DNA of 64,000 bases from a virus (taxonomy: Duplodnaviria; Heunggongvirae; Uroviricota; Caudoviricetes): IMG/VR virus record IMGVR_UViG_3300030032_000362; one strand, written 5' to 3'. Position 1 is the stretch's first letter, and each line of letters starts with the position of its first letter. This document shows positions 3,433-62,175 of the stretch, piece after piece. The position numbers and the translations under genes are program-made. The notes under the pieces were generated by a model. The model was not told the origin of the DNA, ran no database searches, and was given only the letters and a program-made list of their open reading frames with translations.

Positions 3433-5853
3433 TTAATGTAAATCTGCTACAAAATCTTCCGGCTTTGTAGTCATTGCTTTATATAATTTCGTGTCTGACG
3501 GAAATTCATCAATAAATGGAATCATATTCTTTCCATCATAAATCAATCCTTGTCCATAACCACCATTTGTGATATACGAAAGCTGATTGTCGGAAATTGA
3601 ATAAATTTCCTGTAGTGTATCACGGTTAATCGGTGATTGTGATAATAAATATACAAAGGTGCAGTTATTAATTAATGCACGTGCTTTTTCGCTTGCTAAA
3701 AGGTCTTCCACATCTTGCGTAATACCGGTTGGAAGAGCTCCGTATTTACGTGCCATTTTGTACACTTTTTTTGTAAATTCAGCCGTACTGTCCAAATGTG
3801 TCAACAAATGGAATTCGTCCAAATAAATCCATGTTCGAATACCCTTTTTGTGATTTTCAATAATCTGGTTCCATAAGTTGTTAAAGCAAATAGTTAATCC
3901 CCATTCACGCATGTTGTCGCCGATGCCGGCAATATTATAACTTACAATACGCGAATTTGTATTTACGTTCGTCCGATGAGAAAACTTATCAAAGCTCGTA
4001 ATATACAATTCGAGAGCCGTTGCAATTTCCGTTGCTTCCATCTCTTCCTGCCCCATTAATATTTCATATAAATCTTGCAGCGTAGGCATTGCGTCTCTAT
4101 CAATTGTGATAGATGGGTCTTTTGCCCGTAGCTCCGTGATATGTTTCATATAATCACGATATACTAAACGTACACATCGGTTAATGATAGTTTTCTGAAT
4201 CGGGCTTAACCCATACATACCGCCTAGTGCAATTTCACAAATACTGCATATGTAATCTGATTTTACTGTAATCGGGTCGCCTTTTTCAGAATAACCTAAA
4301 TCCATATCCATTGGATTAAGATAATTGTCTTCATTAATATCAATCTTAACCTCTTCACCGCCAAGCAACTTCATCATTGGCGAGTACTCACCCTGCGGGT
4401 CAACGACATAAATACAATCATTTGTATTAAGTGCAACCTGATACATTTCTCGTTTAGCAGAAAAAGATTTACCGGTTCCCGGCATACCTAAAATAATGCC
4501 ATTACCATTAACCGAGAATTTACGATTATGGAAAATCATATTTCTGCTGACAGCATGTAAGCCATAATAAAATCCATCTTTTTGCATCAATTCTCGTGTT
4601 GAATATGGAACGAACGCACTGGTTTCTTCTGTCGTTGAAAGTTTGCTCATTTCGCTTGTGGACATAACGCATAACGGCAGAGAATCTTTAAAACCAAGTT
4701 CCTGTAAGGCATTCATGATACGAAACTTACATAAATGCTTTTCAACTACAGATTGAATTGTTTTAGTTTGTGAATCCAATTCCTCTTTTGAATCCGCATA
4801 GTGCATAACCAAAACATTTGTTAAAAACATTTTTTGGTCTTCTTCGGTGATGTCCGCCAACAAAAGGTCTGCATCTTTATATGCCTTTTTCACTTTTTCC
4901 GGAATTAATTCAGCAGAATAATTTCCTTTCACCGCCGTTTTTTGTGCTTCCATTACATCTTTTTTTGTTTTTGTCAATTGCCGCTCAACTAACTTTGTGG
5001 ACATTGCCGGGTCAAGAGGCTCAATATTGATTGTAGTAATCATATTAATCGGCAAATCCGTAATGTCCGAAATAATTTCCGGTGATAAACGAGTAACTGT
5101 TTCATAACGCAGTTTTAAAACACAGGCATATTTTTCATCCATTCTTATATAAGATGGGCGGAAAGAGAAAGACATTGGACCAATTAAGTCTTTCGTAGAA
5201 AGTCCATGCTTTTTCATATTCATATAATTAAATGTTTCTGCTTCTTTTCCATCAATATTTGCTCTGCGATAGAAATTACCCTCATCCCGATTCATAATGC
5301 TGTATAACAATTCAAGCCGTTCAATCAATGATAATTCAATCGTATCTTCATTTGATACATTCTTAATAGTCTTATTGATATTCGCTTTTAATGTATTAAA
5401 TCGAGATATAGCATCTTCTACGTTTTCTGCTTCAACGCTTAATGTCAAATATTTCAAATGCTGAATATTAGAACGTCCTTCTTTTGATTTTTCAATCAAA
5501 ATCTGATTATGTTCTTCACGATATTCGTCCAATGTATCGCCTTTCATCCGGCATAAAATATTTTTTTCAAATGTTTTTTTGCCCACTCGTTTATTATCAA
5601 TTGTTATCTGCATCAACATAGATGGGTCTAACAAATTAACTAAATCACGAAACATTTCCAAAATCTGTTCTGCATCTTCATCGGACGAAGTTTTCAAGTC
5701 AATATCTGTCAACCGAAAAGTTTTTGTAAAATATCCTTCCTCTGTTTCGATAATACCATCTTTATAAGCCCCTATATATGGTATTGTTTCCTGAACTGTT
5801 CGGCTGATTTTAAACTTTTTAGGACGTTTTTTTGTTACATTTTTCTGTTTCAT
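3433..5853 (-). CDS. virB4: Type IV secretion ATPase, VirB4 family (TcpF / Tn916 Orf16 / PrgJ-like)
   Basis: 806 aa. Walker A GILGMPGTGKSF. The N-terminus (ETIPYIGAYKDGIIETEEGYFTKTF) and overall length are typical of Gram-positive VirB4 homologs. Confidence 0.85.
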   Translation of the reverse strand: MKQKNVTKKRPKKFKISRTVQETIPYIGAYKDGIIETEEGYFTKTFRLTDIDLKTSSDEDAEQILEMFRDLVNLLDPSMLMQITIDNKRVGKKTFEKNILCRMKGDTLDEYREEHNQILIEKSKEGRSNIQHLKYLTLSVEAENVEDAISRFNTLKANINKTIKNVSNEDTIELSLIERLELLYSIMNRDEGNFYRRANIDGKEAETFNYMNMKKHGLSTKDLIGPMSFSFRPSYIRMDEKYACVLKLRYETVTRLSPEIISDITDLPINMITTINIEPLDPAMSTKLVERQLTKTKKDVMEAQKTAVKGNYSAELIPEKVKKAYKDADLLLADITEEDQKMFLTNVLVMHYADSKEELDSQTKTIQSVVEKHLCKFRIMNALQELGFKDSLPLCVMSTSEMSKLSTTEETSAFVPYSTRELMQKDGFYYGLHAVSRNMIFHNRKFSVNGNGIILGMPGTGKSFSAKREMYQVALNTNDCIYVVDPQGEYSPMMKLLGGEEVKIDINEDNYLNPMDMDLGYSEKGDPITVKSDYICSICEIALGGMYGLSPIQKTIINRCVRLVYRDYMKHITELRAKDPSITIDRDAMPTLQDLYEILMGQEEMEATEIATALELYITSFDKFSHRTNVNTNSRIVSYNIAGIGDNMREWGLTICFNNLWNQIIENHKKGIRTWIYLDEFHLLTHLDSTAEFTKKVYKMARKYGALPTGITQDVEDLLASEKARALINNCTFVYLLSQSPINRDTLQEIYSISDNQLSYITNGGYGQGLIYDGKNMIPFIDEFPSDTKLYKAMTTKPEDFVADLH

Positions 5854-7316: not shown

Positions 7317-7826
7317 TTACGTTACTTTTACCCATTTCAAAATAGTTGTTACGCTAAAAGCAATTGCTCCGCCAAATAGCAGTTTGAGTCCTTTACTAAT
7401 TCCATCTGAGTTATCCTGCGCAAAGCCGAGGCCTGTAGAAAGACCACCATAAAGCGCAATAACAGCACCGATTACCTGTATAACAGATTCAATTGTTTTT
7501 AAAACATCTTTGAGCTGTGTTGAATCACCCATAAAAGTTCTTATATTTGCTAAAACCGCCCCTGCCGCTAATTCAGCAATGCCTTTTGAAAGCTGCTCTG
7601 CCTGGTCAGATGTCATAGCGATACCAAATTTCCATACACCAAGAACTAAAAAAACATCTCCAATCGTTTCTACGACTGGATATAAGTATTTGTTGCTCAA
7701 TACGCCAATTTTAGCGGCCGCTACTGCGCTGTCGGCGTAACCAACAGTAATGGATAAGGTTAAAATCGTAATCAAAAGAAGAAAAGAGAAAAAAAATTGT
7801 TTTTTTTGTTCATATGTTAATTTCAT
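7317..7826 (-). CDS. Pilin-like small membrane protein (VirB2/TrbC-like), paralog A
   Basis: Signal peptide plus two hydrophobic helices. The C-terminal half (IGAVIALYGGLSTGLGFAQDNSDGISKGLKLLFGGAIAFSVTTILKW) is about 70% identical to the neighbouring gene. Confidence 0.4.
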   Translation of the reverse strand: MKLTYEQKKQFFFSFLLLITILTLSITVGYADSAVAAAKIGVLSNKYLYPVVETIGDVFLVLGVWKFGIAMTSDQAEQLSKGIAELAAGAVLANIRTFMGDSTQLKDVLKTIESVIQVIGAVIALYGGLSTGLGFAQDNSDGISKGLKLLFGGAIAFSVTTILKWVKVT

Positions 7827-7892
7827 TCAATTTCCCCTTTCTATTGGGCGAAACTAATTTCCCGCCCAATAAGTTATTTTTTTAATAATTTT

Positions 7893-8285
7893 TTAGCCTT
7901 TAAAAGCAATCCATTTCAGAATGGTCGTGGTGCTAAACGCAATCGCTCCACCAATCAAAAATTTAAGTCCACGACTTTGTCCATCCGGATTATCTTGTGC
8001 ATACCCTAATCCTGCCGTTCCGCCGCCAAATAAGGCAACAACAGCGCCAATTACCTGAACAACAGTAGCTGCTATTTTAGGAAATTCATCAAGCCCAGTA
8101 ACTTTACTTTTTTCATTGATTTTTGTTACATTAATCGCTTCAGCACCGGATATTGATGATGCAACCATAAGCCCAACCATCATACAAAAAAGAGCTAAGC
8201 TGATTCCGTTTCTTTTGAACCATTCTTTTGCTCTTGTTTTGAATGGCTTTTTTTCTGTTACTTTTTGTTTACATGGTATTTTCAT
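7893..8285 (-). CDS. Pilin-like small membrane protein, paralog B
   Basis: The track ORF starts at TTG 8318. A better start is ATG 8283-8285 (MKIPCKQK), preceded by a GAGGA RBS. It has a long basic signal-peptide n-region and the conserved C-terminal block shared with 7317..7826. Confidence 0.4.
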   Translation of the reverse strand: MKIPCKQKVTEKKPFKTRAKEWFKRNGISLALFCMMVGLMVASSISGAEAINVTKINEKSKVTGLDEFPKIAATVVQVIGAVVALFGGGTAGLGYAQDNPDGQSRGLKFLIGGAIAFSTTTILKWIAFKG

Positions 8286-8332: not shown

Positions 8333-8346
8333 TTAATATGTCTGTT
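8333..8346 (-). promoter_or_regulatory. Conserved promoter motif copy
   Basis: TTAATATGTCTGTT, about 48 bp upstream of ATG 8285. Confidence 0.6.
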
Positions 8347-8414: not shown

Positions 8415-9344
8415 CTAATTATCCTTTGTTACAATAGAATTTGCGCCCTGAACCGTAATCCAACCATGAGATTTTCTAGCCTGTGCCAGCTCATAATCAA
8501 TCAGTTCTTTTGTCAAACTGTTAGAAATCTTTTTGTTCGCATTTGCTTCTGCATTGGACGAAATTTCCTTTGCTTTGGCATCTGCTTCTGCCTGCCGCTG
8601 CTTTACTTTGGCATCTGCTTCTGCTTTTTCAACAGATTTTTTGTTGTTAATCTGCTGCGTCTCGTATTCAATCTGCGCCTGCTGCTTTTTCGAAATGCGT
8701 TTATCATATTCTTTGTCAAATCCAATCTGGCTGATAACTACTTTGTTAATCTTAATTGTGTTTTCGCCGTATTTCCCATCAATAGACTCCTGCAATACTT
8801 TTAAAGTTTTTGGCTCAATCACGCTTCGATTTGTTACATCAACTGGATTTAATGTTTTAGATGCAGACTTAACAGCAGACGCTACTAACGTTTCCGGAAT
8901 CAAATTATCCGCATTTGTTACATTTGCGTAAATCCATGCAGAACGCTCCGGTAAAATCTGACAAGTTACGGTAATATCCGAAAACTGTACTGTGTTTCGT
9001 TCACTTGTTTCTGATTCAATAAGTGAATCTTCATAATATTTAACATCCTGCTGCTTGTTGTTAATCAATTCAATATGTTGCACAAAAGGCATTTTAAAAT
9101 TCAATCCATTCGATAATGGACGGTTATCAATCTGTCCAAATTTGGACGACACTCCGGTATAACCGGTTGGAATAATGGTAAATGACTGTCCGAGAACAAT
9201 AACTAAAATGCCTAATACAATTAAACTTGCCGGAATTGATTTTTTTACTTCTTCCTCTTCATAAGCTTTGTACATTATGTACCCAATTGAACTAAGTGCA
9301 ATCAGCACTCCAATAATAGTTACTACAATTTCCATTTCATTCAT
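8415..9344 (-). CDS. SPFH/band-7 family membrane protein with C-terminal coiled coil
   Basis: N-terminal TM helix. GYTGVSSKFGQIDNRPLSNGLNFKMPFVQ fits the prohibitin/stomatin core. The C-terminus is K/E/A-rich (AEADAKVKQRQAEADAKAKE). Confidence 0.5.
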   Translation of the reverse strand: MNEMEIVVTIIGVLIALSSIGYIMYKAYEEEEVKKSIPASLIVLGILVIVLGQSFTIIPTGYTGVSSKFGQIDNRPLSNGLNFKMPFVQHIELINNKQQDVKYYEDSLIESETSERNTVQFSDITVTCQILPERSAWIYANVTNADNLIPETLVASAVKSASKTLNPVDVTNRSVIEPKTLKVLQESIDGKYGENTIKINKVVISQIGFDKEYDKRISKKQQAQIEYETQQINNKKSVEKAEADAKVKQRQAEADAKAKEISSNAEANANKKISNSLTKELIDYELAQARKSHGWITVQGANSIVTKDN

Positions 9345-21053: not shown

Positions 21054-21067
21054 TTAATATGTCTGTT
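21054..21067 (-). promoter_or_regulatory. Conserved promoter motif copy
   Basis: TTAATATGTCTGTT upstream of the 17037..20975 gene. Confidence 0.6.
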
Positions 21068-29415: not shown

Positions 29416-30402
29416 TTATAATTCTATATCATCATCTTGCGGTATTATCTTATTTTCCAATTCAATATTTTTTAAATATTCTGGATAAATCATTTTATCA
29501 AAACGAGTTTCTACACTTTCCATTATATATTGTTTTCTTTCTTTTGAACATATCTCCCAATCTCCTACCTTCTCTGGAATAGCAGAAATAAATTGTCTAA
29601 TATCTGGCAATTTCTCTTTTATAATAGGCGACAAACGCTTTATTGCTTCCTTTAACTCTAAATCATCATATTGAATCATTTTTTTTGCCGAAAGTATATG
29701 CCCATCTACTTCATAAGCAGTACGAGACCCAATATATAAATCACTTTTATTTTTATCATGTATTATTTTATTTATCCTTTCGTCACTCGATTTATTAGAA
29801 AAAGAATTGCCATTATCATATACCGGAGCAACATTATATGTTTTATTCTTTTCATTATATAAGAGTCCCCAATTGCCGTTATTTCTATCTGTATTATCAA
29901 TAAGTATATCAACAACCACCATATTCCAAAATCTTGAAATTGCGTCAGGACATTTTTTTACAATAGGATTATATTGTAAATGCAATAATAATTCTTTGAG
30001 ATTGACTCTATCTCCTGTTCCAGAATAATGCATTTGTTCATCTAATGTTTTTGACAATTCTTTATTTGCTGCATTTTTTAAGCTTCTCATTTCCATAAGA
30101 GAGCCTCTTGTTTTGCAAAAATCTTTACAAGCAACTACTACTTTATTGTTTCTAACTCCAAGTGCCGTTTCGTGAACAGGAATACCTAACATATCATATA
30201 TATGGCTTCCAACAAATTCAGATAATGGAGAGGTTGTATAAGACATGCCTAAAGGTGTTTTAAACGCTCGTTCTGTTTTAGGATATTTTATAATCCAATA
30301 ACTATTTCCCATCATAATACCATCTTTGTCCCCAGCCATGCCAGCATAAGAACCATGCCGGTCACTATATTCACAATTTTCAAAATTATAAATATTAATC
30401 AT
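29416..30402 (-). CDS. HipA-like serine/threonine kinase domain protein
   Basis: VVVDILIDNTDRNNGNWGLL and NVAPVYDNGNSF resemble the HipA C-terminal catalytic-loop and activation segments (D-H-KN-S...aP-YD). Confidence 0.45.
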   Translation of the reverse strand: MINIYNFENCEYSDRHGSYAGMAGDKDGIMMGNSYWIIKYPKTERAFKTPLGMSYTTSPLSEFVGSHIYDMLGIPVHETALGVRNNKVVVACKDFCKTRGSLMEMRSLKNAANKELSKTLDEQMHYSGTGDRVNLKELLLHLQYNPIVKKCPDAISRFWNMVVVDILIDNTDRNNGNWGLLYNEKNKTYNVAPVYDNGNSFSNKSSDERINKIIHDKNKSDLYIGSRTAYEVDGHILSAKKMIQYDDLELKEAIKRLSPIIKEKLPDIRQFISAIPEKVGDWEICSKERKQYIMESVETRFDKMIYPEYLKNIELENKIIPQDDDIEL

Positions 30403-36427: not shown

Positions 36428-36441
36428 TTAATATGTCTGTT
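36428..36441 (-). promoter_or_regulatory. Conserved promoter motif copy
   Basis: TTAATATGTCTGTT 23 bp upstream of ATG 36405. Confidence 0.6.
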
Positions 36442-37122: not shown

Positions 37123-37871
37123 TTCTCATTCCTTCTATCTCATATTCTTCTATTAATAACTCTACATTGACGTAATCATAGCTATAATCCAAAATACTTT
37201 AGCACTTTAGTTATTAAAAAAATAATAAATATTGCTAATATAGTAATTTGATTTATTTTAACGGCTTTTTCTGCGTCTCCGTGTCGTATAATTATATTGT
37301 ATCCATAAATGGCACAAACACCAAAAACACAATAGGGAATTATTGTACTTATCATTGGCTCACATCCTCTCGTTCCCTCTTAAAAGAGAATTAACATGCT
37401 GAATTCATACAATCGTATTCAAAGGAATTCATGTTGTCATCCCAACTGCTAATTTCGAAAATTTTTATTGCAACTTTTACATTGCTTTTCATAAATACAC
37501 AAAAGCTAAAAGAATTAAAGCACTTACTATTTTTACGGCGGGGCTTGTAAATGCATGTAATTCGCCACTATCAATTTTATATGAATAAAGATTCAAGGAA
37601 CAAAAAACCAAAAAAATAACAAATAATGCATTCCTTATAATAATTAGTGCCATTATCGCATCCTCCTTTTCCCCTCCTAAGCAGGAATTAGCATACTTTT
37701 TTAATGTCTCTTGAAAACTGCTCGCATCCGGTCACCAGATGCTTTGTCCTATTACTCCGAGACATGCAACTGCCTATATGCCTTACTCGTAATTATCATA
37801 TAGTTAGTCACAGTTACAGTTTTTCCAACTATTCATCGTACGAGATTACCAAAATAGTCTAAGCAGAAAAA

Positions 37872-37944
37872 TGAAAGAGTCCGGAATCGAACCGAAACTA
37901 CAGTGTGGCCGACTGTTGTGCTTAACCTTTACACTACTCTTTCA
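37872..37944 (-). tRNA. tRNA-like element with non-canonical anticodon loop (reads as GCC/Gly but lacks U33)
   Basis: Acceptor GAAAGAG/CTCTTTC. D-arm GTGT-AAAGGTTAA-GCAC. T-arm TTCGG-TTCGATT-CCGGA. The anticodon loop is CGGCCAC (G at position 33) and the variable loop is only 3 nt. Possibly a pseudo-tRNA. Confidence 0.35.
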
Positions 37945-37949
37945 AAAAA

Positions 37950-38025
37950 GGGCGTTGGCCGGACTCGAACCGGCACCTCTTAATGTATTTCACTAAGCGA
38001 GCTACCAATCGCTCTCCACCGCCAC
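37950..38025 (-). tRNA. tRNA-like element; anticodon arm is aberrant
   Basis: Good D-arm (GAGC-GATTGGTA-GCTC) and T-arm (GCCGG-TTCGAGT-CCGGC). The acceptor has one mismatch and there is an extra nucleotide before the anticodon stem. The loop is GAAATAC (A33). Confidence 0.3.
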
Positions 38026-38219
38026 GCCTGTCACGTATTGCATATGCAAGGTTGAATTTCACATTCGTTCATTAATCTATGAACGATAATAAAGACATTT
38101 ATCTACAAATTAAGCTTTTTCCTTTATACATCCACGCGCGTTAAGTAACGCTTTACAAAAAATTATTTCATATTTTTACATTTTAGTCTCGTCTCTAATC
38201 CGATTCATACAATCACCTC

Positions 38220-39317
38220 CTATCTTGAAATATCTTCATTTAACTCAGACGATGTTTTTGCGTTTGACTCAGCAGCCTTTAATGTGATTTCATTAGTTTC
38301 TAAATCATATACGCAAGAATCTTTTTCTAATTTCTCATTTGCTTTCGCCTGAATCCGGCTTTCTCTCAGCTGTTCTCTTGATACATCAGACGTTTTCTGC
38401 TCTGCCGTACCAAGCATATCTCCTAAAATACCCATAGAAGCGATGCTTTGGCTTAAATCTGTCGGGATAAAGATTTTTGTAGCCTGTCCATCCGCAACAT
38501 CTTTCATTGCTTCAATGGATTTCAAACGCAGCACGTTGTCATTCATCTGCGAATTAGCCAACATGCGAATACCATCTGCCTCTGCCTCATACACAAGCTT
38601 AATTGACTTGGCCTTGCCTTCTGCCAGTGCAATTGCGGCATCCTTTTCCGCCTCCGCAGCTAACACTTTAGCCTGACGGTCTCCTTCTGCCATTGCCACT
38701 ACAGATTCTTTGTGTGCCTGAGCCTGAAGCAATGTCTCTCTTCGCTCGCGTTCTGCACGCATCTGTTTTGTCATAACTTCTTCGATTTCAGCCGGAGGAA
38801 TAATATTTTTGATTTCTACACGACTGACGCGAATTCCCCAAGCATCTGTTGCTTCATCCAAAATCTTCTGCATTTTAGCGTTAATAACTTCTCTGGACGA
38901 GAGCGTTTCGTCCAATTCCATTTCTCCGATAATGCTTCGGAGTGTTGTTGCCGTCAGATTTCGTAATCCGGAAGATGGGTCTTCTGCACCATATGTAAAT
39001 TTCTTAGGGTCAAAAATAGTTGCATAAACAACCGAATCAATCTGCATCGTTACATTATCTTTTGTGATAACATTCTGCGGCGGATAATCCAAAACCTGCT
39101 CTTTTAAGGTAATATACCGCACTACGTTATCAATAAATGGGACTTTTACATGAAGTCCGGCCTGCCAAGTTGCCTTATATTTTCCTAATCGTTCAATAAT
39201 CCGACAGGAAGATTGAGGAACCACCTGCACATTTTTTGCAATAATACCGATTACAACCAAAACAATAACTGCTAAAATAATCATACCGATACTAATACTT
39301 ACATCCATAATAATCAC
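38220..39317 (-). CDS. SPFH/band-7 (stomatin/QmcA-YqiK-like) membrane protein
   Basis: N-terminal TM helix then QVVPQSSCRIIERLGKYKATWQAGLHVKVPFIDNVVRYITLKEQVLD and the A/E-rich coiled coil QAKVLAAEAEKDAAIALAEGKAKSIKLVYEAEADG. Confidence 0.75.
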   Translation of the reverse strand: MIIMDVSISIGMIILAVIVLVVIGIIAKNVQVVPQSSCRIIERLGKYKATWQAGLHVKVPFIDNVVRYITLKEQVLDYPPQNVITKDNVTMQIDSVVYATIFDPKKFTYGAEDPSSGLRNLTATTLRSIIGEMELDETLSSREVINAKMQKILDEATDAWGIRVSRVEIKNIIPPAEIEEVMTKQMRAERERRETLLQAQAHKESVVAMAEGDRQAKVLAAEAEKDAAIALAEGKAKSIKLVYEAEADGIRMLANSQMNDNVLRLKSIEAMKDVADGQATKIFIPTDLSQSIASMGILGDMLGTAEQKTSDVSREQLRESRIQAKANEKLEKDSCVYDLETNEITLKAAESNAKTSSELNEDISR

Positions 39318-39419
39318 CTTTTTGCGAAAACTTTTTCGCTATCCTTTCTTAAAATTCATTGTTGCTTTGTCCATTTTATTATTGGACGAACAAAACCTTT
39401 GACCTCCTTTTCGCTATTG

Positions 39420-39700
39420 TTTCCTACGGTTTCCCGCGTTGGATATTCTTCCAACGCAGGCATTTTAATTATTTCAGCAGGGACTACCGTAACGCCTGCC
39501 TTATCCGGTAATGAACCGGAATCTTGATGTGGAGAGGAATCGAACCTCACATGATGCCTTTGTCCATATCCTTTCGGCTCACTTTGGCATCGTACTTGTG
39601 GTTTCCTGCGTCTCCCTTTCCGCCACACATCAACTTGTTATTGGATGGATTCAGAGAGACCTTACGCTTCCGGAAGCGCCCCTTGCTCTAAACTAAGTTC
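39420..39700 (-). ncRNA. Structured non-coding region (unidentified RNA; several long inverted repeats and a tRNA-like T-arm)
   Basis: GCGTTGGA-tattct-TCCAACGC (8-bp stem) and GCAGGC...GCCTGC. GAGGTTCGATTCCTC is a T-arm-like motif but no acceptor stem follows it. The region carries no convincing protein-coding signal. Confidence 0.2.
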
Positions 39701-39778
39701 TGGTAAAACAACCAAATTATTACAATCTTTATCCATCTAAGATTAAAACGGTCTATTACATCACTATTGTGATGCAAA

Positions 39779-39867
39779 CGCAGACAATAGGATTTGAACC
39801 TATACACCGTTGCCAGTTACTAACGCTTTAGCAAAGCGCCGCCTTACCAATTAGGCTTATATCTGCA
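39779..39867 (-). tRNA. tRNA-Ser(GCT)
   Basis: Acceptor GCAGATA/TGTCTGC. 3-bp D-stem. Anticodon loop TTGCTAA. Long variable arm. T-arm ATAGG-TTCAAAT-CCTAT. Confidence 0.7.
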
Positions 39868-40432
39868 AAAAATAAACATGATTAAGGTTTCCCTTTATCC
39901 ATTATAAACTCAGTCATATTCGGCCACCGTGATGATAAGTCTGAGCGTTCAGGAGCGACCCTTGGCTTCTTACCACTGTCTAAGCACGAGTGGGAATGAT
40001 GCCCACAAATTTCACGGTTCTTTCAGAGAATGTTATATTTTCTATTTGCTCCGCAAAGCAAAAGATAATTTTAATTATAATTCTGCCATACCGCTACTTT
40101 AACGAATTTCTTGTGTTATACCCTGATTTCTCAGGTTTAAGGCAAACTGACTTGTTGAGATTTCCGTTTAGTCCGTGGTCTCTCACACCTCTCACATCAA
40201 CGGATTATTCCCGAACATCGGGCGTCTATTATGTCAGCCACAAGGATTCTGCTTTTGACCTCTTTATAATGATACACCACACAGCGTTGTTGACAGTTTC
40301 TGTCTTCATATCAAGAATCACTTCTTAATAAAAGTTGTTAATCAATTCAATATCTCATAATTGATTCAACTCATTACCATGCGTCTCAGCAGGATTGAAA
40401 ACTCCTTCTTCACTGAGGTAATCATGTTTAAA

Positions 40433-40503
40433 TGACGGCTGCGGGACTCGAACCCACACTTATAGGATGAAAACCTATTGTCTTACCTTTTGACTAAGCC
40501 GCC
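40433..40503 (-). tRNA. tRNA-Glu(TTC)
   Basis: Acceptor GGCGGCT/AGCCGTC. Anticodon stem ATAGG/CCTAT with loop TTTTCAT. T-arm GTGGG-TTCGAGT-CCCGC. 71 nt. Confidence 0.75.
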
Positions 40504-40774
40504 ATTCCCCTCTCTCGCAAAAAGAGAGGAGGCCAACCCAAAAAATAAAGAAAACCATAACATCTTTGAAACTCCCCGACTTGCTTTTTGCAAGTTCTCA
40601 TAACTACTAAAGATGTCTATAACTGCCAGCAAAAACCTGGTCGCAATATCTTTGTTTTGCTCTCTACAGTTACAGTTTTTTGCCAAGACCCAACCTGCGA
40701 CTGGTTAAGCCATTTTGGCTTCAGGAAGTTTGTCCTATGCGTTCCTATCCTCCCTCGCTAGAGAAAGTGAAACG

Positions 40775-40903
40775 CAAATCTGACGGTAAGGATTCGAACC
40801 TTACAAATTCGGGCAGTTCATGAAGAAAGTTTCAAATGGGAAAAAAACAAACTCTTGCAACTTATTCTTCTCGCCCGATGCATTTCCATAAATGCTAACG
40901 TCA
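40775..40903 (-). tRNA. tRNA-like gene whose anticodon stem is interrupted by about 60 nt (intron-like insertion or disrupted tRNA)
   Basis: 5' acceptor CTGACGT, D-arm GCAT-TTATGGAA-ATGC, 5' anticodon stem TCGGG; then about 60 nt; then CCCGA, ATTTG, T-arm TAAGG-TTCGAAT-CCTTA, and 3' acceptor CCGTCAG-A. Confidence 0.3.
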
Positions 40904-40950
40904 GAGCCAAGGTTCACATATGTCAAAATTTTGTCCATTATCATGGACAG

Positions 40951-41022
40951 CAGCGGTAGCAGGATTCGAACCTGCGAATACAGGAGTCAAAGTCCTGTGC
41001 CTTACCACTTGGCGATACCGCT
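40951..41022 (-). tRNA. tRNA-Gln(TTG)
   Basis: Acceptor AGCGGTA/TACCGCT. D-arm GCC-AAGTGGTAA-GGC. Anticodon loop CTTTGAC. T-arm GCAGG-TTCGAAT-CCTGC. Confidence 0.75.
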
Positions 41023-41157
41023 AGGTTTTGTCAAGGTGCTTGCTTTTCCGCCTTGACATAACAGAATAAACTATCCGAAAGAGGTGGATTATTAGTTCCA
41101 AACGCATATCATGATACATTGGAAAAATGTTTCACGATACATGCAAGCATTAAGGAG

Positions 41158-41229
41158 AGGAAGATATGGGATTTGAACCCATGACCATTCGGTTAACAGC
41201 CGAACGCTCTGCCGCTGAGCTAATCTTCC
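41158..41229 (-). tRNA. tRNA-Asn(GTT)
   Basis: Acceptor GGAAGAT/ATCTTCC. D-arm GCTC-AGCGGCA-GAGC. Anticodon loop CTGTTAA. T-arm ATGGG-TTCAAAT-CCCAT. Confidence 0.75.
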
Positions 41230-41325
41230 TTTTGCCCGAAGCGTTTGCGGTTATCACTCCGGACTTTGGGGGATTTTCTATAAATTCGATACATACGAAA
41301 AAGGTTTTCCGCAAACTTTAAGAAA

Positions 41326-41399
41326 TGGGGAGCGTGGGACTCGAACCCACGACCAACTGTGTATAAGACAGACACTCTAACCAACTGAGTTAGCTCCCT
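41326..41399 (-). tRNA. tRNA-Ile-like with UAU anticodon (reads AUA)
   Basis: D-arm ACTC-AGTTGGTTA-GAGT. Anticodon stem CTGT/ACAG with loop CTTATAC. T-arm GTGGG-TTCGAGT-CCCAC. The acceptor has 6 bp plus one A-C mismatch. Confidence 0.5.
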
Positions 41400-41498
41400 A
41401 TTTTATTGGCTGTGTTCTCCAAAAATGTGTTCTCCGCTATGTGCCCTCCTTTAATGTGTTCTCCATGTAAGAATGTTTTTTTAATCATCCTTACACTA

Positions 41499-41573
41499 CT
41501 AATATGTCTGTTTTGAATTGAAATGAAAACGATATTATGAGCAAAATTTTCCTTACACATGTCGTTACTCATT
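41499..41573 (-). promoter_or_regulatory. Extended promoter/operator element, copy 3 of 5
   Basis: CTAATATGTCTGTTTTGAATTGAAATGAAAACGATATTATGAGCAAAATTTTCCTTACACATGTC. Confidence 0.55.
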
Positions 41574-41586
41574 TGTTCTCACATTC

Positions 41587-41600
41587 TTAATATGTCTGTT
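41587..41600 (-). promoter_or_regulatory. Conserved promoter motif copy
   Basis: TTAATATGTCTGTT, followed by a GCTCCCCGAAGGGAGC hairpin terminator at about 41610-41640. Confidence 0.55.
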
Positions 41601-41657
41601 CAGAATTAAAAAATCATACAAAAAAGCTCCCCGAAGGGAGCCTTTTACAAAATCAAA

Positions 41658-48906: not shown

Positions 48907-48920
48907 TTAATATGTCTGTT
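48907..48920 (-). promoter_or_regulatory. Conserved promoter motif copy
   Basis: TTAATATGTCTGTT. Confidence 0.55.
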
Positions 48921-50519: not shown

Positions 50520-50715
50520 CCAAACTTTAGCCTAAGTCTTTAATTAAGGTCGGTTTTCCAACATACTTGTTAGATGCAAATATATCATAGACATATCTTT
50601 GGACTTATACCAACTTTCCGTATCTGTTACCTTAATTTAGCCTGTGCTTTTATTCCACATGTGTGCAGTGCTTTCTTGAGAACTAGTTTTTCATCCTAGC
50701 GACTTAGGCTTAACG
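50520..50715. repeat. About 180-bp non-coding segment bounded by 12-bp inverted repeats (TTAGCCTAAGTC ... GACTTAGGCTAA)
   Basis: TTAGCCTAAGTC at about 50527-50538 and its reverse complement at about 50700-50712. A third partial copy (TAATTTAGCCTG) lies at about 50636. Confidence 0.3.
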
Positions 50716-50765
50716 CGAAGTGGTGGAATTGAACCACGCTTAGTATAAAAGACACCTACTTGTCT
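50690..50765 (-). ncRNA. Truncated tRNA-like element (acceptor, D-arm and T-arm present; anticodon arm replaced by about 12 nt)
   Basis: Reverse complement reads GCGGAGT-TA-AGAC-AAGTAGGT-GTCT-TTTTATACTAAG-CGTGG-TTCAATT-CCACC-ACTTCGC-G. Total length about 60 nt. Confidence 0.25.
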
Positions 50766-50814
50766 TAACTCCGCCAAATTACTATATTCAACTCCTTAAC
50801 AAATCTTCTATTCT

Positions 50815-51294
50815 CTACAATAATATTTGCAATTCAATTAACGCATGAAAAACACAAAGCGTACCAACCATGCAAAGGCCCCAGCCAATCATTGGCTTTT
50901 TTAAACTTTCCGCCTCAAAAAACCAATAAAGAATCTTAACCCCTATAAAAATGCAAATAATTCCAACAATTGCATATATAATTCCCGGCAAATTCCATAT
51001 AGGTGCATTTAATTTGTGTGAATCACGGTGCGCCTTTTCAGCTCTCCATTCTTGAAACCCTGCTTCCTTGTGGTAATCTTCTTGTGCCTTTTGATACCCC
51101 TGTTCTTCTGCCCGCTGAATAGGGTCTGCTGTTGCAGATGGATAAGAGGTGTCATAATTTTGGTGATTATCATTGCAACAGCAACATGCTTTTGCTGACA
51201 TTGGAATAGTTGCACCTAATACAGTACATAAAAGCAATGTTAAAAATAATATCTTTTTCATGTCTAACCCCTCCCTAATATCGAACTTTTCCAA
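50815..51294 (-). CDS. Secreted or membrane protein with Cys cluster (signal peptide, two C-terminal TM helices)
   Basis: MKKILFLTLLLCTVLGATIPMSAKACCCCND... Two C-terminal hydrophobic helices. Confidence 0.4.
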   Translation of the reverse strand: MEKFDIREGLDMKKILFLTLLLCTVLGATIPMSAKACCCCNDNHQNYDTSYPSATADPIQRAEEQGYQKAQEDYHKEAGFQEWRAEKAHRDSHKLNAPIWNLPGIIYAIVGIICIFIGVKILYWFFEAESLKKPMIGWGLCMVGTLCVFHALIELQILL

Positions 51295-52264: not shown

Positions 52265-52328
52265 AATAATATCCTTCCTTTCTCTTTTTTAGCAATGTGC
52301 TCTCCGTTATTGTGTTCTCCTTATATAT

Positions 52329-52372
52329 CTAATATGTCTGTTTTGAATTAAAACGAAAATCATATTATGAGC
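52329..52372 (-). promoter_or_regulatory. Extended promoter/operator element, copy 4 of 5
   Basis: CTAATATGTCTGTTTTGAATTAAAACGAAAATCATATTATGAGC. Confidence 0.55.
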
Positions 52373-57303: not shown

Positions 57304-57317
57304 TTAATATGTCTGTT
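57304..57317 (-). promoter_or_regulatory. Conserved promoter motif copy
   Basis: TTAATATGTCTGTT about 37 bp upstream of ATG 57267. Confidence 0.55.
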
Positions 57318-62147: not shown

Positions 62148-62161
62148 TTTAATATGTCTGT
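62148..62161 (-). promoter_or_regulatory. Conserved promoter motif copy
   Basis: TTAATATGTCTGTT upstream of 61553..62146. A related TTAATATGATGC lies at about 62189. Confidence 0.5.
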
Positions 62162-62175
62162 TAAAACCTAAAAAA

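Follow-up and report, generated by a model that had tools for sequence, protein, structure and literature searches.

The interval from 37,872 to 41,399 in the window (the whole 64,000-nt stretch of DNA analysed here) is a non-coding RNA (ncRNA) island organized around a ROOL RNA and belongs to a known class, the ROOL/tRNA islands. Taken as a whole, it is probably an ncRNA operon on a type IV secretion system (T4SS) conjugative element, in which tRNA mimics would punctuate transcript processing; these mimics may be a new component of such islands. The initial annotation pictured the interval as a tRNA array interleaved with an SPFH gene. The gene is real, but this picture omits the largest feature, a complete ROOL RNA, and misses the organization around it.

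Layout of the island

The features are listed below from 5' to 3' on the minus strand, with one element outside the island placed last, and with bit scores from the Rfam tRNA model and ARAGORN coordinates in brackets where they differ.

41621-41646, minus strand: intrinsic-terminator-like hairpin (11-bp stem with 5 GC pairs, then TTTTT), closing the upstream operon
41588-41600, minus strand: promoter-like motif AACAGACATATTA, copy 1 upstream of the island (motif scan)
41500-41512, minus strand: promoter-like motif, copy 2 (repeat families D2/D4), probable start of the island transcript
41411-41464, minus strand: leader with four GGAG(A/G)(A/G)CACA repeats (family D5), between promoter motif and first tRNA
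41326-41399, minus strand: tRNA-Ile(UAU), 62.4 bits (41325-41400)
41158-41229, minus strand: tRNA-Asn(GUU), 73.4 bits (41157-41229)
40951-41022, minus strand: tRNA-Gln(UUG), 69.5 bits (40950-41022)
40779-40905, minus strand: tRNA-like 1, 127 nt (T-arm box; cloverleaf-like minimum free energy (MFE) fold, z -2.8)
40505-40778, minus strand: structured spacer, 274 nt (MFE -86.2 vs. -71.5 for shuffles, z -3.0)
40433-40503, minus strand: tRNA-Glu(UUC), 66.5 bits (40432-40504)
39867-40432, minus strand: ROOL RNA (Rfam RF03087), ~566 nt, between tRNA-Glu and tRNA-Ser
39779-39866, minus strand: tRNA-Ser(GCU) with long variable arm, 56.3 bits (39778-39867)
39524-39633, minus strand: tRNA-like 2, 110 nt (T-arm box and fold)
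39309-39523, minus strand: structured leader of the SPFH mRNA, 215 nt (z -3.8; 0 of 200 shuffles fold as well)
38220-39308, minus strand: SPFH/Band-7 gene, 362 aa (Pfam Band_7 PF01145, 3.9e-37)
37950-38023, minus strand: aberrant tRNA-like gene, "Ile-AAU" in ARAGORN
37872-37943, minus strand: aberrant Gly-GCC-like tRNA with G33, 48.3 bits (37871-37944)
36429-36441, minus strand: nearest promoter-like motif 3' of the island, marking where the following transcription unit begins
50715-50774, minus strand: mini tRNA-like element, 60 nt, a fifth such element outside the island (T-arm box and fold)

The motif AACAGACATATTA has 32 matches in the window vs. 3.8 expected, and the best 24 copies all lie on the minus strand, mostly ~20-45 nt 5' of a ribosome-binding-site-like sequence where one is present. 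The island is bracketed by this motif, as had been claimed, with copies at 41588-41600 and 41500-41512 upstream and at 36429-36441 downstream, and no copy was found between 41499 and 36442. Together with the terminator at 41646-41621, the two motifs just 5' of the island give the layout of a single unit. A pair of repeats like those of the leader also follows a motif copy at 52342. The window contains 10 copies of the T-arm box GGTTCRANTCC, where 0.04 are expected, and each is on the minus strand. None of the nine tRNA-shaped units of the island encodes CCA, and a T follows most of them. The spacer at 40505-40778 has no Rfam match and no homolog in the other loci. Island order is retained in all 13 other metagenome copies, and T4SS genes adjoin it wherever the contig extends that far; the metagenome collection has 92 blocks that list the exact SPFH protein.

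The ROOL RNA and its tRNA neighbours

The Rfam match to ROOL spans 39864-40441 and covers the entire model (positions 1-574 of 574; 368.3 bits, cut-off 99.1, E = 1e-85), overlapping both flanking tRNA ends by a few nucleotides. The RNA occupies the entire gap between the two tRNAs: its 5' end lies directly after the discriminator base of tRNA-Glu, and tRNA-Ser begins directly after its 3' U-run. Its extreme ends build the P1 helix (AAACAUGAUU/AAUCAUGUUU), and its sequence is ~77% identical to ROOLs of gut viral contigs in IMG/VR. ROOL RNAs have been described as "often near tRNA islands" and possibly co-transcribed with them, and they form nanocages, although their function is not known (PMC5737381, PMC12286853, PMC12990946).

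Such junctions are general among 84 ROOL loci surveyed on viral contigs, many of which stem from a single metagenome project and may be interrelated. In 51 of the 75 loci with sufficient flank, the ROOL core motif is preceded by a same-strand tRNA whose end lies 299-306 nt away (299 nt in the window), or in 53 of 75 when any T-arm-bearing element is counted; about 70% of the 84-locus set have a tRNA 3' end located exactly at the start of ROOL. On the 3' side, 38 of 80 loci have a tRNA that begins 214-320 nt downstream (246 nt in the window). The tRNA repertoire of the 84 islands includes Ser-gct (n = 55), Gln-ttg (n = 42), Asn-gtt (n = 23), Ile-tat (n = 15), and "Ile-aat" (n = 11), and tRNA-Glu(UUC) as the 5' neighbour of ROOL is rare (1 of 84).

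ARAGORN called seven minus-strand tRNA genes in the interval, five canonical and two aberrant. The canonical genes for Ser(GCU), Glu(UUC), Gln(UUG), and Asn(GUU) and the Ile(UAU) gene, all previously proposed from the sequence, are borne out by both ARAGORN and Rfam (56-73 bits). tRNA-Ile(UAU) has a canonical loop (CUUAUAC) with mismatches at A1·C72 and U27·U43. These five are read as working decoders of the repertoire that generally accompanies ROOL islands.

tRNA mimics and their constraint

Two tRNA-like genes had been noted as non-standard at 37872-37944 and 37950-38025, which ARAGORN, Rfam, and the predicted folds support, one having G33 and the other a pentaloop anticodon arm. Of the three aberrant genes then counted, these two had been given coordinates and both are real, but the island total is four, comprising the two odd genes and tRNA-like 1 and 2. 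The four cannot decode because a usable anticodon loop has been lost. In the Gly-GCC-like gene, the anticodon loop is C-G-G-C-C-A-C, with G33 instead of U33, and the gene also has A73, A2-U71, and A3-U70; G33 is invariant across all copies, the anticodon toggles between GCC and ACC, and U55 is replaced by C in five copies. The "Ile-AAU" gene has a good T-arm and D-arm, G8, and a G5·A68 mismatch, and its anticodon arm folds into a stem of 6-7 bp capped by the pentaloop AAAUA. It lies below the Rfam tRNA cut-off, with tRNA-Sec as best match (20 bits, cut-off 47, E = 2.1), and ARAGORN calls it only when allowing a 9-nt loop, losing the call in three copies (L008, L223, L224) that differ by one or two substitutions.

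tRNA-like 1, called by neither ARAGORN nor Rfam, combines a 7-bp acceptor stem, a D-like hairpin with a GG loop, and a 6-bp T-stem with a UUCGAAU loop with a branched insert of ~70 nt that replaces the anticodon arm. tRNA-like 2 has an 8-bp acceptor stem, a GCG/CGC D-like stem with a GGG-containing loop, a T-arm with a UUCGAUU loop, and an expanded, aberrant central domain instead of the anticodon arm. The mini element outside the island has a 7-bp acceptor, a D-like hairpin, and a T-arm, lacks an anticodon arm, and lies 40 nt past the stop codon of ORF 50815-51294. Placement at module boundaries is also seen within the island, where tRNA-like 2 lies 215 nt before the SPFH start codon and the odd pair follows the SPFH stop codon at a distance of 196 nt; in a related element (L013), four mimics of the tRNA top half follow the SPFH operon. 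In the viral islands, the ROOL strand carries 50 strict top-half structures uncalled by ARAGORN, in addition to 196 that match called tRNAs, vs. 3 in total on the opposite strand. Two further families recur in these islands, one with G33 but separate from the gene described here (loop CGAAUGG, 12 copies) and one with a 6-nt loop. Anticodon-disabled tRNA mimics are common in viral ROOL islands.

Nucleotide diversity (π), estimated from a sample of few independent haplotypes with evident recombination, is 0.54% in the odd-Ile gene, 1.79% in the odd-Gly gene, 1.17% in tRNA-like 2, and 1.01% in ROOL, vs. 3.41% at SPFH third codon positions; two plain spacers reach 4.4-5.0%, and both kinds of site served as near-neutral references. 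tRNA-like 1 is weakly constrained (π 2.2-3.2%); its substitutions are confined to loops, junctions, and the insert, with none in stems, and its D-like loop varies at the bases adjoining the GG but not at the GG itself. Substitutions in the odd genes (G10 to A, G12 to A, U55 to C) break pairs or affect normally invariant tRNA positions, and the T-stem pair 50:64 of tRNA-like 2 is broken in three haplotypes. The odd pair is missing from three of 14 copies, with another cassette in its place in L009 and L010 and an IS605 TnpB gene at the site in L099, where a 122-nt deletion also ends exactly at the 5' edge of tRNA-like 2. Recombination is visible in L101, whose SPFH gene is 92% identical and whose odd pair is identical, and tRNA content differs widely in the related elements L013 and L102.

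A conjugative carrier

Judged by its gene content, the carrier is a T4SS conjugative element and not a phage. It encodes a VirD4/TraG coupling protein (PF02534, 2e-61) and a VirB4-like ATPase, both 5-8 kb downstream of the island, as well as LRR/Flg_new surface proteins of 1,312 and 1,896 aa, UvrD, RadC, and an IrrE-like peptidase. The larger ORFs that were scanned include no member of a capsid, terminase, or integrase family. The element is found in many human-gut metagenome assemblies, and searches of INPHARED phages, PLSDB plasmids, and all GTDB species genomes did not find the island. The host is probably an uncultured human-gut Firmicute from the Clostridia. As the initial annotation held, the array belongs to the element and not to a host tRNA site: it lies on the same strand as the adjoining genes, with the promoter-like motif on both sides and a conserved order, and the check for att-like direct repeats flanking the island found none. 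The carrier also encodes one endolysin-like glucosaminidase with PHROG matches.

Proposed processing of the island transcript

Based on the layout and general enzymology, we propose that the island is co-transcribed and cut into its parts. The minus-strand transcript would start at the promoter-like motif at 41512 and/or 41600 and run through tRNA-Ile(UAU), tRNA-Asn, tRNA-Gln, tRNA-like 1, the 274-nt spacer, tRNA-Glu, ROOL, and tRNA-Ser, continuing with tRNA-like 2, the structured leader, the SPFH mRNA, and an optional cassette with the two aberrant tRNAs. Since the nine units lack CCA, excision by RNase P at the 5' ends and RNase Z at the 3' ends is expected. These cuts would free ROOL with exact ends, after the tRNA-Glu discriminator and before G1 of tRNA-Ser, as a 566-nt RNA with termini pairing as helix P1, and this RNA would presumably form the homo-oligomeric nanocage known from the family. 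What the four mimics retain of a tRNA is its top half (acceptor stem, T-arm, and the GG in the D-like loop), the portion recognized by the CCA-adding enzyme as well as by RNase P and RNase Z. In our preferred reading, they would act as processing punctuation that separates the ncRNAs from the SPFH mRNA and sets its 5' and 3' ends, with small stable tRNA-shaped RNAs as by-products. The loss of the odd pair from some copies speaks against punctuation everywhere, as this role is not required in each.

Alternative explanations

The array could instead be a host chromosomal tRNA cluster used for integration, or the carrier a phage, since ROOL is usually reported from phages and prophages (PMC12286853), the glucosaminidase is endolysin-like, and some contigs with the element reach 353 kb, compatible with chromosomal integration of an integrative and conjugative element. 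We consider this very improbable given that no att-like repeats flank the island and no integrase, capsid, or terminase family turned up among the ORFs scanned, and given the position of the island in a same-strand gene run with T4SS genes nearby, and its absence from the three databases. Another explanation is that the array compensates for the AT-rich codons of a 35%-GC element in a higher-GC host, with the odd genes as degenerate by-products. The comparison was made with Clostridia and Lachnospiraceae loci (44-46% GC). As the element is missing from every GTDB species genome, these loci stand in for the actual host, and they are a weak proxy whichever way the comparison points. The proposed match to AT-rich codons holds for GAA (58 vs. 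35-40 per 1000), AAT (AAY, 55 vs. 40-45), and CAA (14.5 vs. 3-9), but ATA (17.6 vs. 18.7-22.8) and AGY (20.6 vs. 19.9-22.4) show no excess over the proxy, and the codons with the largest excesses (AAA, TTA, TAT, and ATT) have no tRNA in the array. Moreover, Ser-gct, Gln-ttg, Asn-gtt, Ile-tat, and "Ile-aat" recur in viral ROOL islands with almost no protein homology to the element, which indicates that the set accompanies ROOL and has not been fitted to the element. Codon compensation, which also leaves ROOL out of account, is only partly supported and seems unlikely.

Anticodon nucleases are known to target Gln-UUG, Glu-UUC, Asn-GUU, and Ser tRNAs. The island might serve anti-defence, its canonical tRNAs replacing host tRNAs destroyed upon entry by such nucleases or other tRNA-targeting immunity and its mimics acting as decoys or sponges. 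Phage tRNAs evade tRNA-targeting defences, partly by anticodon-loop changes (PMC10264068, PMC11555353), and the invariance of G33 while the anticodon varies, like the G33 and 6-nt-loop families in viral ROOL islands, would fit this role. However, PADLOC finds no tRNA-targeting system beside the island (its one candidate, of the HipA-like family PDC-M03A, is 8 kb distant), the canonical tRNAs have ordinary anticodon loops, and no decoy tRNA was found in the literature searched, so that we regard this role as doubtful. The aberrant elements may also be tRNA pseudogenes in decay, left over from turnover within the array and functionless in themselves, as suggested by the dispensable odd pair, the changes at universally conserved positions (U55 to C, G10 to A, and G34 to A), the broken T-stem of tRNA-like 2, and the varying tRNA content of related elements. 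Decay, too, is a tentative explanation that we do not favour: polymorphism is 2- to 9-fold below that of near-neutral sites, the acceptor and T-arm are selectively spared, with the stems of tRNA-like 1 unchanged, and the top-half-only design recurs strand-specifically in unrelated sequence families (50 uncalled structures vs. 3 in total on the opposite strand).

Relation to known systems

ROOL (RF03087) islands of phages and prophages, Ligilactobacillus salivarius megaplasmids, and Enterococcus faecalis chromosomes likewise give full-length model matches inside a same-strand tRNA array on a Firmicute mobile element, and the Ser-gct, Gln-ttg, Asn-gtt, and Ile-tat tRNAs flanking ROOL here are also typical there. 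The present island differs in its T4SS conjugative carrier, in which no phage structural genes were found, its tRNA-Glu(UUC) 5' neighbour, its coupling to SPFH, and its element-specific tRNA mimics. GOLLD, found in tRNA arrays of Mycobacterium, phages, and Lactobacillales, is, like ROOL, a large, ornate, cage-forming RNA of horizontally transferred tRNA arrays, and tRNAs can be covalently contiguous with it (PMC12286853, PMC12990946, PMC9569102). It is a separate family with no Rfam match in the interval, where the tRNAs abut the RNA ends and do not lie inside a linker. The arrays of T4, T5, mycobacteriophages, and other mobile elements are similarly clustered, same-strand, CCA-less sets to which both the codon-compensation and the anti-defence readings apply (PMC10264068, PMC11555353), whereas the present island has only five decoders, partially matching the codon excess, and mixes them with a 566-nt ncRNA, non-decoding mimics, and a protein gene.

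Non-decoding tRNA-shaped modules that RNase P and RNase Z can cut, thereby setting the ends of adjacent RNAs, are known from mitochondrial tRNA punctuation, the MALAT1 mascRNA, and the species 1 and 2 RNAs of phage T4. The mimics also sit at mRNA/ncRNA boundaries, although they have no sequence relationship to these modules and their cleavage is predicted; the literature searched yielded no bacterial examples flanking a protein-coding gene of a conjugative element. For the tRNA-Sec, allo-tRNA, and YrlA families, Rfam reports a single match, the weak one of the odd-Ile gene to tRNA-Sec. tRNA-like 1 and 2 nevertheless resemble allo-tRNAs and tRNA-Sec (PMC5389517) in departing from the 7/5 cloverleaf, as their 6-bp T-stems give a 13-14-bp coaxial stack, but unlike allo-tRNAs they have no functional anticodon. 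They also share with the Y RNA-like YrlA tRNA mimics (PMC4201824) the mimicry of T- and D-arms without an anticodon.

A full-length ROOL RNA within the tRNA island

The island, a minus-strand interval of the window from about 41600 to 37872, holds more than the tRNA array described in the initial annotation, which overlooked a complete ROOL RNA (RF03087) filling the entire 566-nt gap between tRNA-Glu and tRNA-Ser. The Rfam match, which overlaps each flanking tRNA by a few bases, covers positions 1-574 of the 574-position model without truncation and scores 368.3 bits against a gathering cut-off of 99.1 (E = 1.1e-85); the ROOL RNAs of the other island copies score 371-392 bits. Aligned to the consensus structure, with its conserved multi-junction and pseudoknot architecture, the full-length RNA shows no more than about 25 non-canonical positions (v marks). 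The closing helix P1 (AAACAUGAUU/AAUCAUGUUU), made by the two ends of the RNA, is intact, with one strand directly after the discriminator base of tRNA-Glu and the other directly before G1 of tRNA-Ser, and ROOL is thereby butt-joined to a tRNA on both sides. By score, architecture and genomic context, the RNA is a member of the ROOL family. Few bacterial RNAs are as large and elaborate as ROOL, whose cage structure was solved only recently. The Efa, Lsa and env-120 representatives form a homo-oligomeric (hexamer or octamer) nanocage by cryo-EM (PMC12286853, PMC12990946), and the ROOL of the window presumably forms the published nanocage as well.

ARAGORN calls seven tRNA genes in the island, all on the minus strand, and the five canonical ones carry exactly the anticodons claimed initially.

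Features of the island, 5' to 3' on the minus strand, and one distant tRNA-like element (window coordinates)
41326-41399, minus, tRNA-Ile(UAU), loop CUUAUAC; ARAGORN and Rfam
41158-41229, minus, tRNA-Asn(GUU), loop CUGUUAA; ARAGORN and Rfam
40951-41022, minus, tRNA-Gln(UUG), loop CUUUGAC; ARAGORN and Rfam
40905-40779, minus, tRNA-like 1, 127 nt; fold z = -2.8
40433-40503, minus, tRNA-Glu(UUC), loop UUUUCAU; ARAGORN and Rfam
39864-40441, minus, ROOL RNA; Rfam match
39779-39866, minus, tRNA-Ser(GCU), loop UUGCUAA; ARAGORN and Rfam
39633-39524, minus, tRNA-like 2, 110 nt; T-arm box and fold
38220-39308, minus, SPFH gene
37950-38023, minus, odd-Ile, the aberrant "Ile-AAU" gene
37872-37943, minus, odd-Gly, the aberrant "Gly-GCC" gene
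50774-50715, minus, mini tRNA-like element, 60 nt; T-arm box

The canonical genes score 56.3-73.4 bits (RF00005 cut-off 29) and have normal 7-nt anticodon loops with U33. Taking a canonical elongator tRNA to be one with more than 29 bits, a 7-nt loop, U33, a purine at position 37 and a GTTCRA T-loop, the Ile-UAU, Asn, Gln, Glu and Ser genes show every one of these properties. None of the nine tRNA-shaped units of the island encodes CCA. No tmRNA was found by ARAGORN, nor any match to the tmRNA clan in Rfam at E up to 5.

The carrier element and its transcription

Two type IV secretion genes were identified in the window, one for a VirB4-like ATPase and one for a VirD4/TraG coupling protein (PF02534, 2e-61) that has CD1115-family homologs on conjugative Firmicute plasmids. 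Other products are two giant surface proteins with LRR/Listeria-Bacteroides repeats, a glucosaminidase, UvrD, RadC, an IrrE-like peptidase and a HipA-like kinase. Capsid, terminase and integrase families were absent among the larger ORFs scanned, nor did the ORFs scanned across the 64 kb include a recognisable relaxase. Because type IV secretion genes are present and no capsid, terminase or integrase was found among the larger ORFs, the carrier is, judging from its gene content, a putative conjugative plasmid or ICE and not a phage. Genes for tRNA ligase, CCA addition, tRNA modification or aminoacyl-tRNA synthetases were not found in the window (Pfam, 30 ORFs), and PADLOC identified no tRNA-targeting system among the 10 proteins around the island, returning only the HipA-like PDC-M03A and weak partial matches. 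The former is a HipA_C-domain kinase-like protein (29416-30402, minus strand) assigned to the candidate defence family PDC-M03A at 1.6e-27; HipA-type kinases target aminoacyl-tRNA synthetases, and this protein may be relevant to the tRNA theme.

The motif AACAGACATATTA occurs in 32 copies (up to 2 mismatches; 3.8 expected), nearly all of them on the minus strand (e.g. 62150-62162, 57305-57317, 48908-48920, 36429-36441, 21055-21067 and 8334-8346), as are all of the 24 best. It lies about 20-45 nt before the RBS where a gene follows, and several copies directly follow terminators. Two copies, at 41600 and 41512, are located just upstream of tRNA-Ile and after a strong terminator (41646-41621), and the next is found at 36441, with none between 41512 and 36441; the island thus looks like one transcription unit of the element. 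The motif copies bracket the island and no direct, att-like repeats flank it, which sets aside an integration-site reading and bears out the earlier view of the array as borne by the element and not as a host tRNA site. The motif does not appear to be plainly sigma-70-like and may be read by a sigma factor or regulator specific to the element. In a subset of the copies, a further conserved box, TTTGCTCATAATATGATTTTCATTT, lies about 25 nt upstream. Tandem GGAG(A/G)(A/G)CACA repeats directly follow two of the motif copies on the minus strand, with four units before tRNA-Ile (41411-41464) and two after the motif copy at 52342 (about 52290-52330), and could represent a leader that binds protein or RNA.

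An SPFH protein of exactly this sequence is listed in 92 metagenome-collection blocks, on contigs of up to 353 kb, and the samples are from human gut wherever their name states the source. The order Ile, Asn, Gln, tRNA-like 1, Glu, ROOL, Ser, tRNA-like 2, SPFH is constant in all 13 other fetched copies. Searches of INPHARED and PLSDB with the island (blastn) gave only tRNA-sized or SPFH-only matches, and the two plasmid SPFH matches are ordinary loci with no annotated tRNAs. The element is thus missing from both collections, and also from all GTDB species genomes, where the nearest SPFH proteins (59-61% identical) belong to Clostridia and Lachnospiraceae MAGs. Because nearby tRNAs are rare at chromosomal SPFH loci (14 of 80), the pairing of tRNAs with SPFH, which is seen throughout the element family (the window and the related loci L013 and L102), is specific to this family. 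The finding is real and belongs to the element: it is a ROOL/tRNA island whose carrier is less usual. The locus offers a prevalent human-gut example of ROOL on a presumed conjugative element instead of a phage, and combines tRNA-defined ROOL ends with a fixed SPFH partner gene and adjoining non-decoding tRNA mimics.

ROOL and tRNAs in viral loci

ROOL has been described as "often near tRNA islands" and possibly co-transcribed with them, and the literature goes no further (PMC5737381, PMC12286853, PMC12990946). From an IMG/VR search for a conserved core motif of ROOL, we retained 84 loci with further ROOL motifs; Rfam identified ROOL in all 18 loci checked, 16 of them full length (354-383 bits). 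Of the 75 loci whose flank was long enough, 51 have a same-strand tRNA with its end 299-306 nt ahead of the core motif (299 in the window). If any T-arm-bearing element is counted, the 5' junction is occupied in 53 of 75, and the remainder have a gap of about 70-100 nt. By these junction counts, a ROOL 5' end butted to a tRNA 3' end is the rule (about 70% of loci). Downstream, a tRNA starts at the matching distance in 38 of 80 ROOL loci.

The commonest tRNAs on the ROOL strand of the viral islands are Met-cat (64), Ser-gct (55), Gln-ttg (42) and Arg-acg (38), followed by Tyr-gta (28), Asn-gtt (23), Trp-cca (16), Ile-tat (15) and "Ile-aat" (11). This recurrent set includes four of the five decoders of the window, the exception being Glu-UUC (1 of 84). 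The ROOL of the window is about 77% identical to several viral ROOLs, and the remainder of its element has almost no protein homology to the viral ROOL contigs. Since the tRNA repertoire and ROOL are similar and the proteins are almost without homology, the island is a module common to gut phages and this putative conjugative element. A second, divergent SPFH/Band-7 paralog is encoded in the window (8415-9344, minus strand), and its homologs (28% identity) occur on five ROOL-island viral contigs (L106, L116, L125, L157 and L228), which hints at a wider SPFH-ROOL association. A skipping-rope RNA (RF02924) adjoins ROOL in the viral locus L149.

Codon usage

The element (69 predicted genes, about 16,500 codons) uses the served codons at 58 (GAA), 55 (AAY), 21 (AGY), 18 (ATA) and 14.5 (CAA) per thousand. 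For comparison we used chromosomal loci of Clostridia and Lachnospiraceae (about 82,000 codons), a weak proxy for the host. The initial emphasis on AT-rich codons survives in part against this proxy: GAA, AAT and CAA are in excess, so that three of the five anticodons match excess codons, but ATA and AGY are not, and the four largest excesses of the element (AAA, TTA, TAT and ATT) have no tRNA in the array. Given this mismatch and the tRNA repertoire shared with viral ROOL islands, element-specific codon tuning is at best a partial explanation.

Aberrant tRNA genes and tRNA-like elements

The two genes at the 3' end of the island (the odd pair) had been described as degenerate or non-standard, and this is confirmed. 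Odd-Gly is accepted by the Rfam tRNA model (48.3 bits), with the anticodon loop CGGCCAC carrying G33 in place of the near-universal U33. The identity set of bacterial tRNA-Gly comprises U73, G1-C72, C2-G71, G3-C70, C35 and C36. Odd-Gly has A73, A2-U71 (or G2·U71) and A3-U70 and thus does not carry this set, which leaves its "Gly" label as a mere reading of three bases. Odd-Ile fails the Rfam tRNA model (cut-off 29 bits), with no RF00005 match at E up to 5; Rfam matches it best to tRNA-Sec, with 20 bits (cut-off 47) and E 2.1. The gene carries G8 and a G·A mismatch within its acceptor stem, and its anticodon arm consists of a 6-7-bp stem under the pentaloop AAAUA. ARAGORN calls it "Ile-AAU" only if a 9-nt loop is allowed, and the call is lost after one or two substitutions in three other copies.

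The T-arm box GGTTCRANTCC has 10 matches in the window, all on the minus strand (0.04 expected): seven in the ARAGORN genes, two in spacers (tRNA-like 1 and 2) and the tenth in the mini element. The aberrant class proposed initially therefore stands but its size does not, as there are more such elements than had been stated, two of them in spacers. TRNA-like 1 folds into a 7-bp acceptor stem, a D-like hairpin with a loop-terminal GG, and a 6-bp T-stem with a UUCGAAU loop, and has a branched insert of about 70 nt at the position of the anticodon arm. The second of these elements, tRNA-like 2, combines an 8-bp acceptor and a T-arm with a D-like GCG/CGC stem, whose loop contains GGG, and its centre is expanded and irregular. 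The mini element, 40 nt past the stop of ORF 50815-51294 and far from the main island, retains an acceptor (GCGGAGU/ACUUCGC), a GG D-like hairpin and a T-arm without an anticodon arm. A 64-aa ORF called over tRNA-like 2 (39550-39356) was treated as non-coding because it is dissimilar to the small ORFs at the same position in related elements.

Searches of the aberrant elements and spacers against every Rfam family at E up to 5 yielded nothing credible. An identity as tRNA-Sec or allo-tRNA does not fit, the single tRNA-Sec match being the sub-threshold one to odd-Ile: those tRNAs have a working anticodon loop and an acceptor/T branch of the 8/5, 9/4, 8/4 or 9/3 type, whereas tRNA-like 1 and 2 have 7/6 and 8/6 stacks and no anticodon loop. 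Exact-pattern scans of IMG/VR with the odd-Gly anticodon arm and the tRNA-like 1 T-arm/acceptor gave no matches, and blastn of the four aberrant elements (the odd pair and tRNA-like 1 and 2) and spacers against about 200 fetched loci gave no homologs.

Two further minus-strand stretches, the spacer 40505-40778 (z -3.0) and 39309-39523 (z -3.8), fold far better than shuffled sequences; they matched no Rfam family and no other fetched locus, and may be further structured RNAs or an SPFH regulatory leader. An exact 15-nt repeat, AAAAACTGTAACTGT (minus strand), is found at 40666-40680, in the spacer after tRNA-like 1, and at 37810-37824, about 50 nt after odd-Gly; by a rough estimate, such a repeat within 8 kb is improbable by chance.

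Anticodon-disabled mimics in other islands

In a related element, L013 (SPFH 77% identical; stretches 4921-5413 and 7320-7910), another tRNA array precedes SPFH and includes Met, a tRNA with an 8-nt loop and the four-base anticodon "ccta", Leu-taa and Leu-tag. After its SPFH operon follow a tRNA-Pro and four acceptor plus T-arm structures not called by ARAGORN, one with a tetraloop-capped "anticodon" stem. ROOL is absent from this 8.8-kb contig.

A strict scan of the viral islands (T-arm box, 5-bp T-stem and 7-bp acceptor stem within 260 nt) recovered, on the ROOL strand, 196 structures corresponding to ARAGORN tRNAs and 50 uncalled ones, in 43 of 85 sequences, against three structures in total on the opposite strand. 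By sequence, the uncalled mimics group into recurrent families of 52 nt (a mini form, 8 loci), 68 nt, 79 nt, 83/84 nt (with 18-nt loops) and 96 nt; the 79-nt form has a C-rich loop of 16 nt and is often the unit butted to the ROOL 5' end. Among the ARAGORN-called genes, one odd family has G33 (12 identical copies, loop CGAAUGG) and another has a 6-nt loop (GCGAGA/GCAAGA). Some of the odd viral families score 41-55 bits with the Rfam tRNA model and others have no match. The mimics comprise G33 loops, anticodon stems capped by a pentaloop or 6-nt loop, loop expansions of 16-25 nt, giant inserts, and minis of 52-60 nt with only the acceptor stem, T-arm and GG loop.

The four aberrant elements of the window share their design, not their sequence, with these viral families, and are element-specific in sequence only. 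The design keeps the half of the tRNA recognised by RNase P, RNase Z and the CCA-adding enzyme and disables the anticodon loop. Such a class of mimics is undescribed in the literature searched, and it is this recurrent class that might be new. Together, the 5' abutment in about 70% of loci and the recurrent top-half mimics on the ROOL strand point to production of ROOL by tRNA-processing enzymes and to a possible tie between tRNA-shaped RNAs and ROOL function. For annotation, odd tRNAs within a tRNA array of a gut mobile element are a reason to search for ROOL or GOLLD, and the anticodon labels of the odd genes (Gly-GCC, Ile-AAU) are unreliable. The sequence CTACCCCTAC occurs in the expanded "anticodon" loops of two unrelated mimic families from viral ROOL loci; examples of mimic-bearing viral loci are L120 (535-613), L181 (6094-6189) and L149 (7136-7217).

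Possible roles of the aberrant elements

Beside the parts themselves, whose identities, order and conservation are observed, we infer a single transcript starting from the promoter motif of the element and its subsequent cleavage. Every tRNA-shaped unit would be cut at its 5' end by RNase P and behind its CCA-less discriminator base by RNase Z, which would release the five decoders together with a ROOL whose ends are exact and whose P1 helix is closed, and cuts at tRNA-like 2 and the odd pair would give the SPFH mRNA defined 5' and 3' ends. The mimics would then act as processing punctuation, which as a selected role we put at slightly under an even chance, the remainder being taken up by a decoy or cargo role and by slow decay.

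In favour of dispensability or decay of the aberrant elements, the odd pair is an optional cassette, replaced by a cassette with a 90-aa ORF in L009 and L010 and by an IS605 TnpB gene in L099. Decay is also favoured by substitutions at normally invariant positions, both in odd-Gly (U55 to C in five copies, G34 to A in two) and in odd-Ile (G10 to A or G12 to A), and by the broken T-stem pair 50:64 in three haplotypes of tRNA-like 2. However, pi computed across 13 copies, with few haplotypes and evident recombination, is lower in odd-Ile, odd-Gly and tRNA-like 2 than in SPFH third-codon positions or plain spacers.

Values of pi across 13 copies (few haplotypes, recombination evident)
odd-Ile, 0.54%
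odd-Gly, 1.79%
tRNA-like 2, 1.17%
ROOL, 1.01%
canonical tRNAs, 0.43-2.33%
SPFH third-codon positions, 3.41%
two plain intergenic spacers, 4.4-5.0%

Simple decay also fits poorly with G33, which is constant in all 11 copies with odd-Gly although the anticodon alternates between GCC and ACC, and with tRNA-like 1, where all substitutions and a 6-nt indel lie in loops, junctions or the insert, leaving the stems unchanged, and where the GG of the D-like loop is fixed next to two variable bases. Furthermore, a 122-nt deletion in L099 stops exactly at the 5' edge of tRNA-like 2. Going beyond punctuation, ROOL/tRNA islands might systematically encode anticodon-disabled mimics as functional partners of ROOL, neither pseudogenes nor mere cleavage sites, for example as nanocage cargo or docking clients or as decoys for tRNA-targeting enzymes. 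We consider this broader proposal unlikely; were it true, the four aberrant elements of the window would be members of the class and the island a compact test system for ROOL.

The stretch 3' of SPFH is a hot spot for cassette exchange. In two copies, IS605-family TnpB with its HEARO/omega RNA (L099 5227-6324 and L223 1747-1961) has inserted immediately 3' of either SPFH or the odd pair. Recombination is visible in the relative L101, where the SPFH is 92% identical, yet the odd pair 3' of it is identical to that of the window. The upstream context of this locus differs, with a YbaK-type tRNA_edit gene (PF04073) and NfeD preceding SPFH (111-2268), and the tRNA_edit gene is a protein link to tRNA charging within the module.
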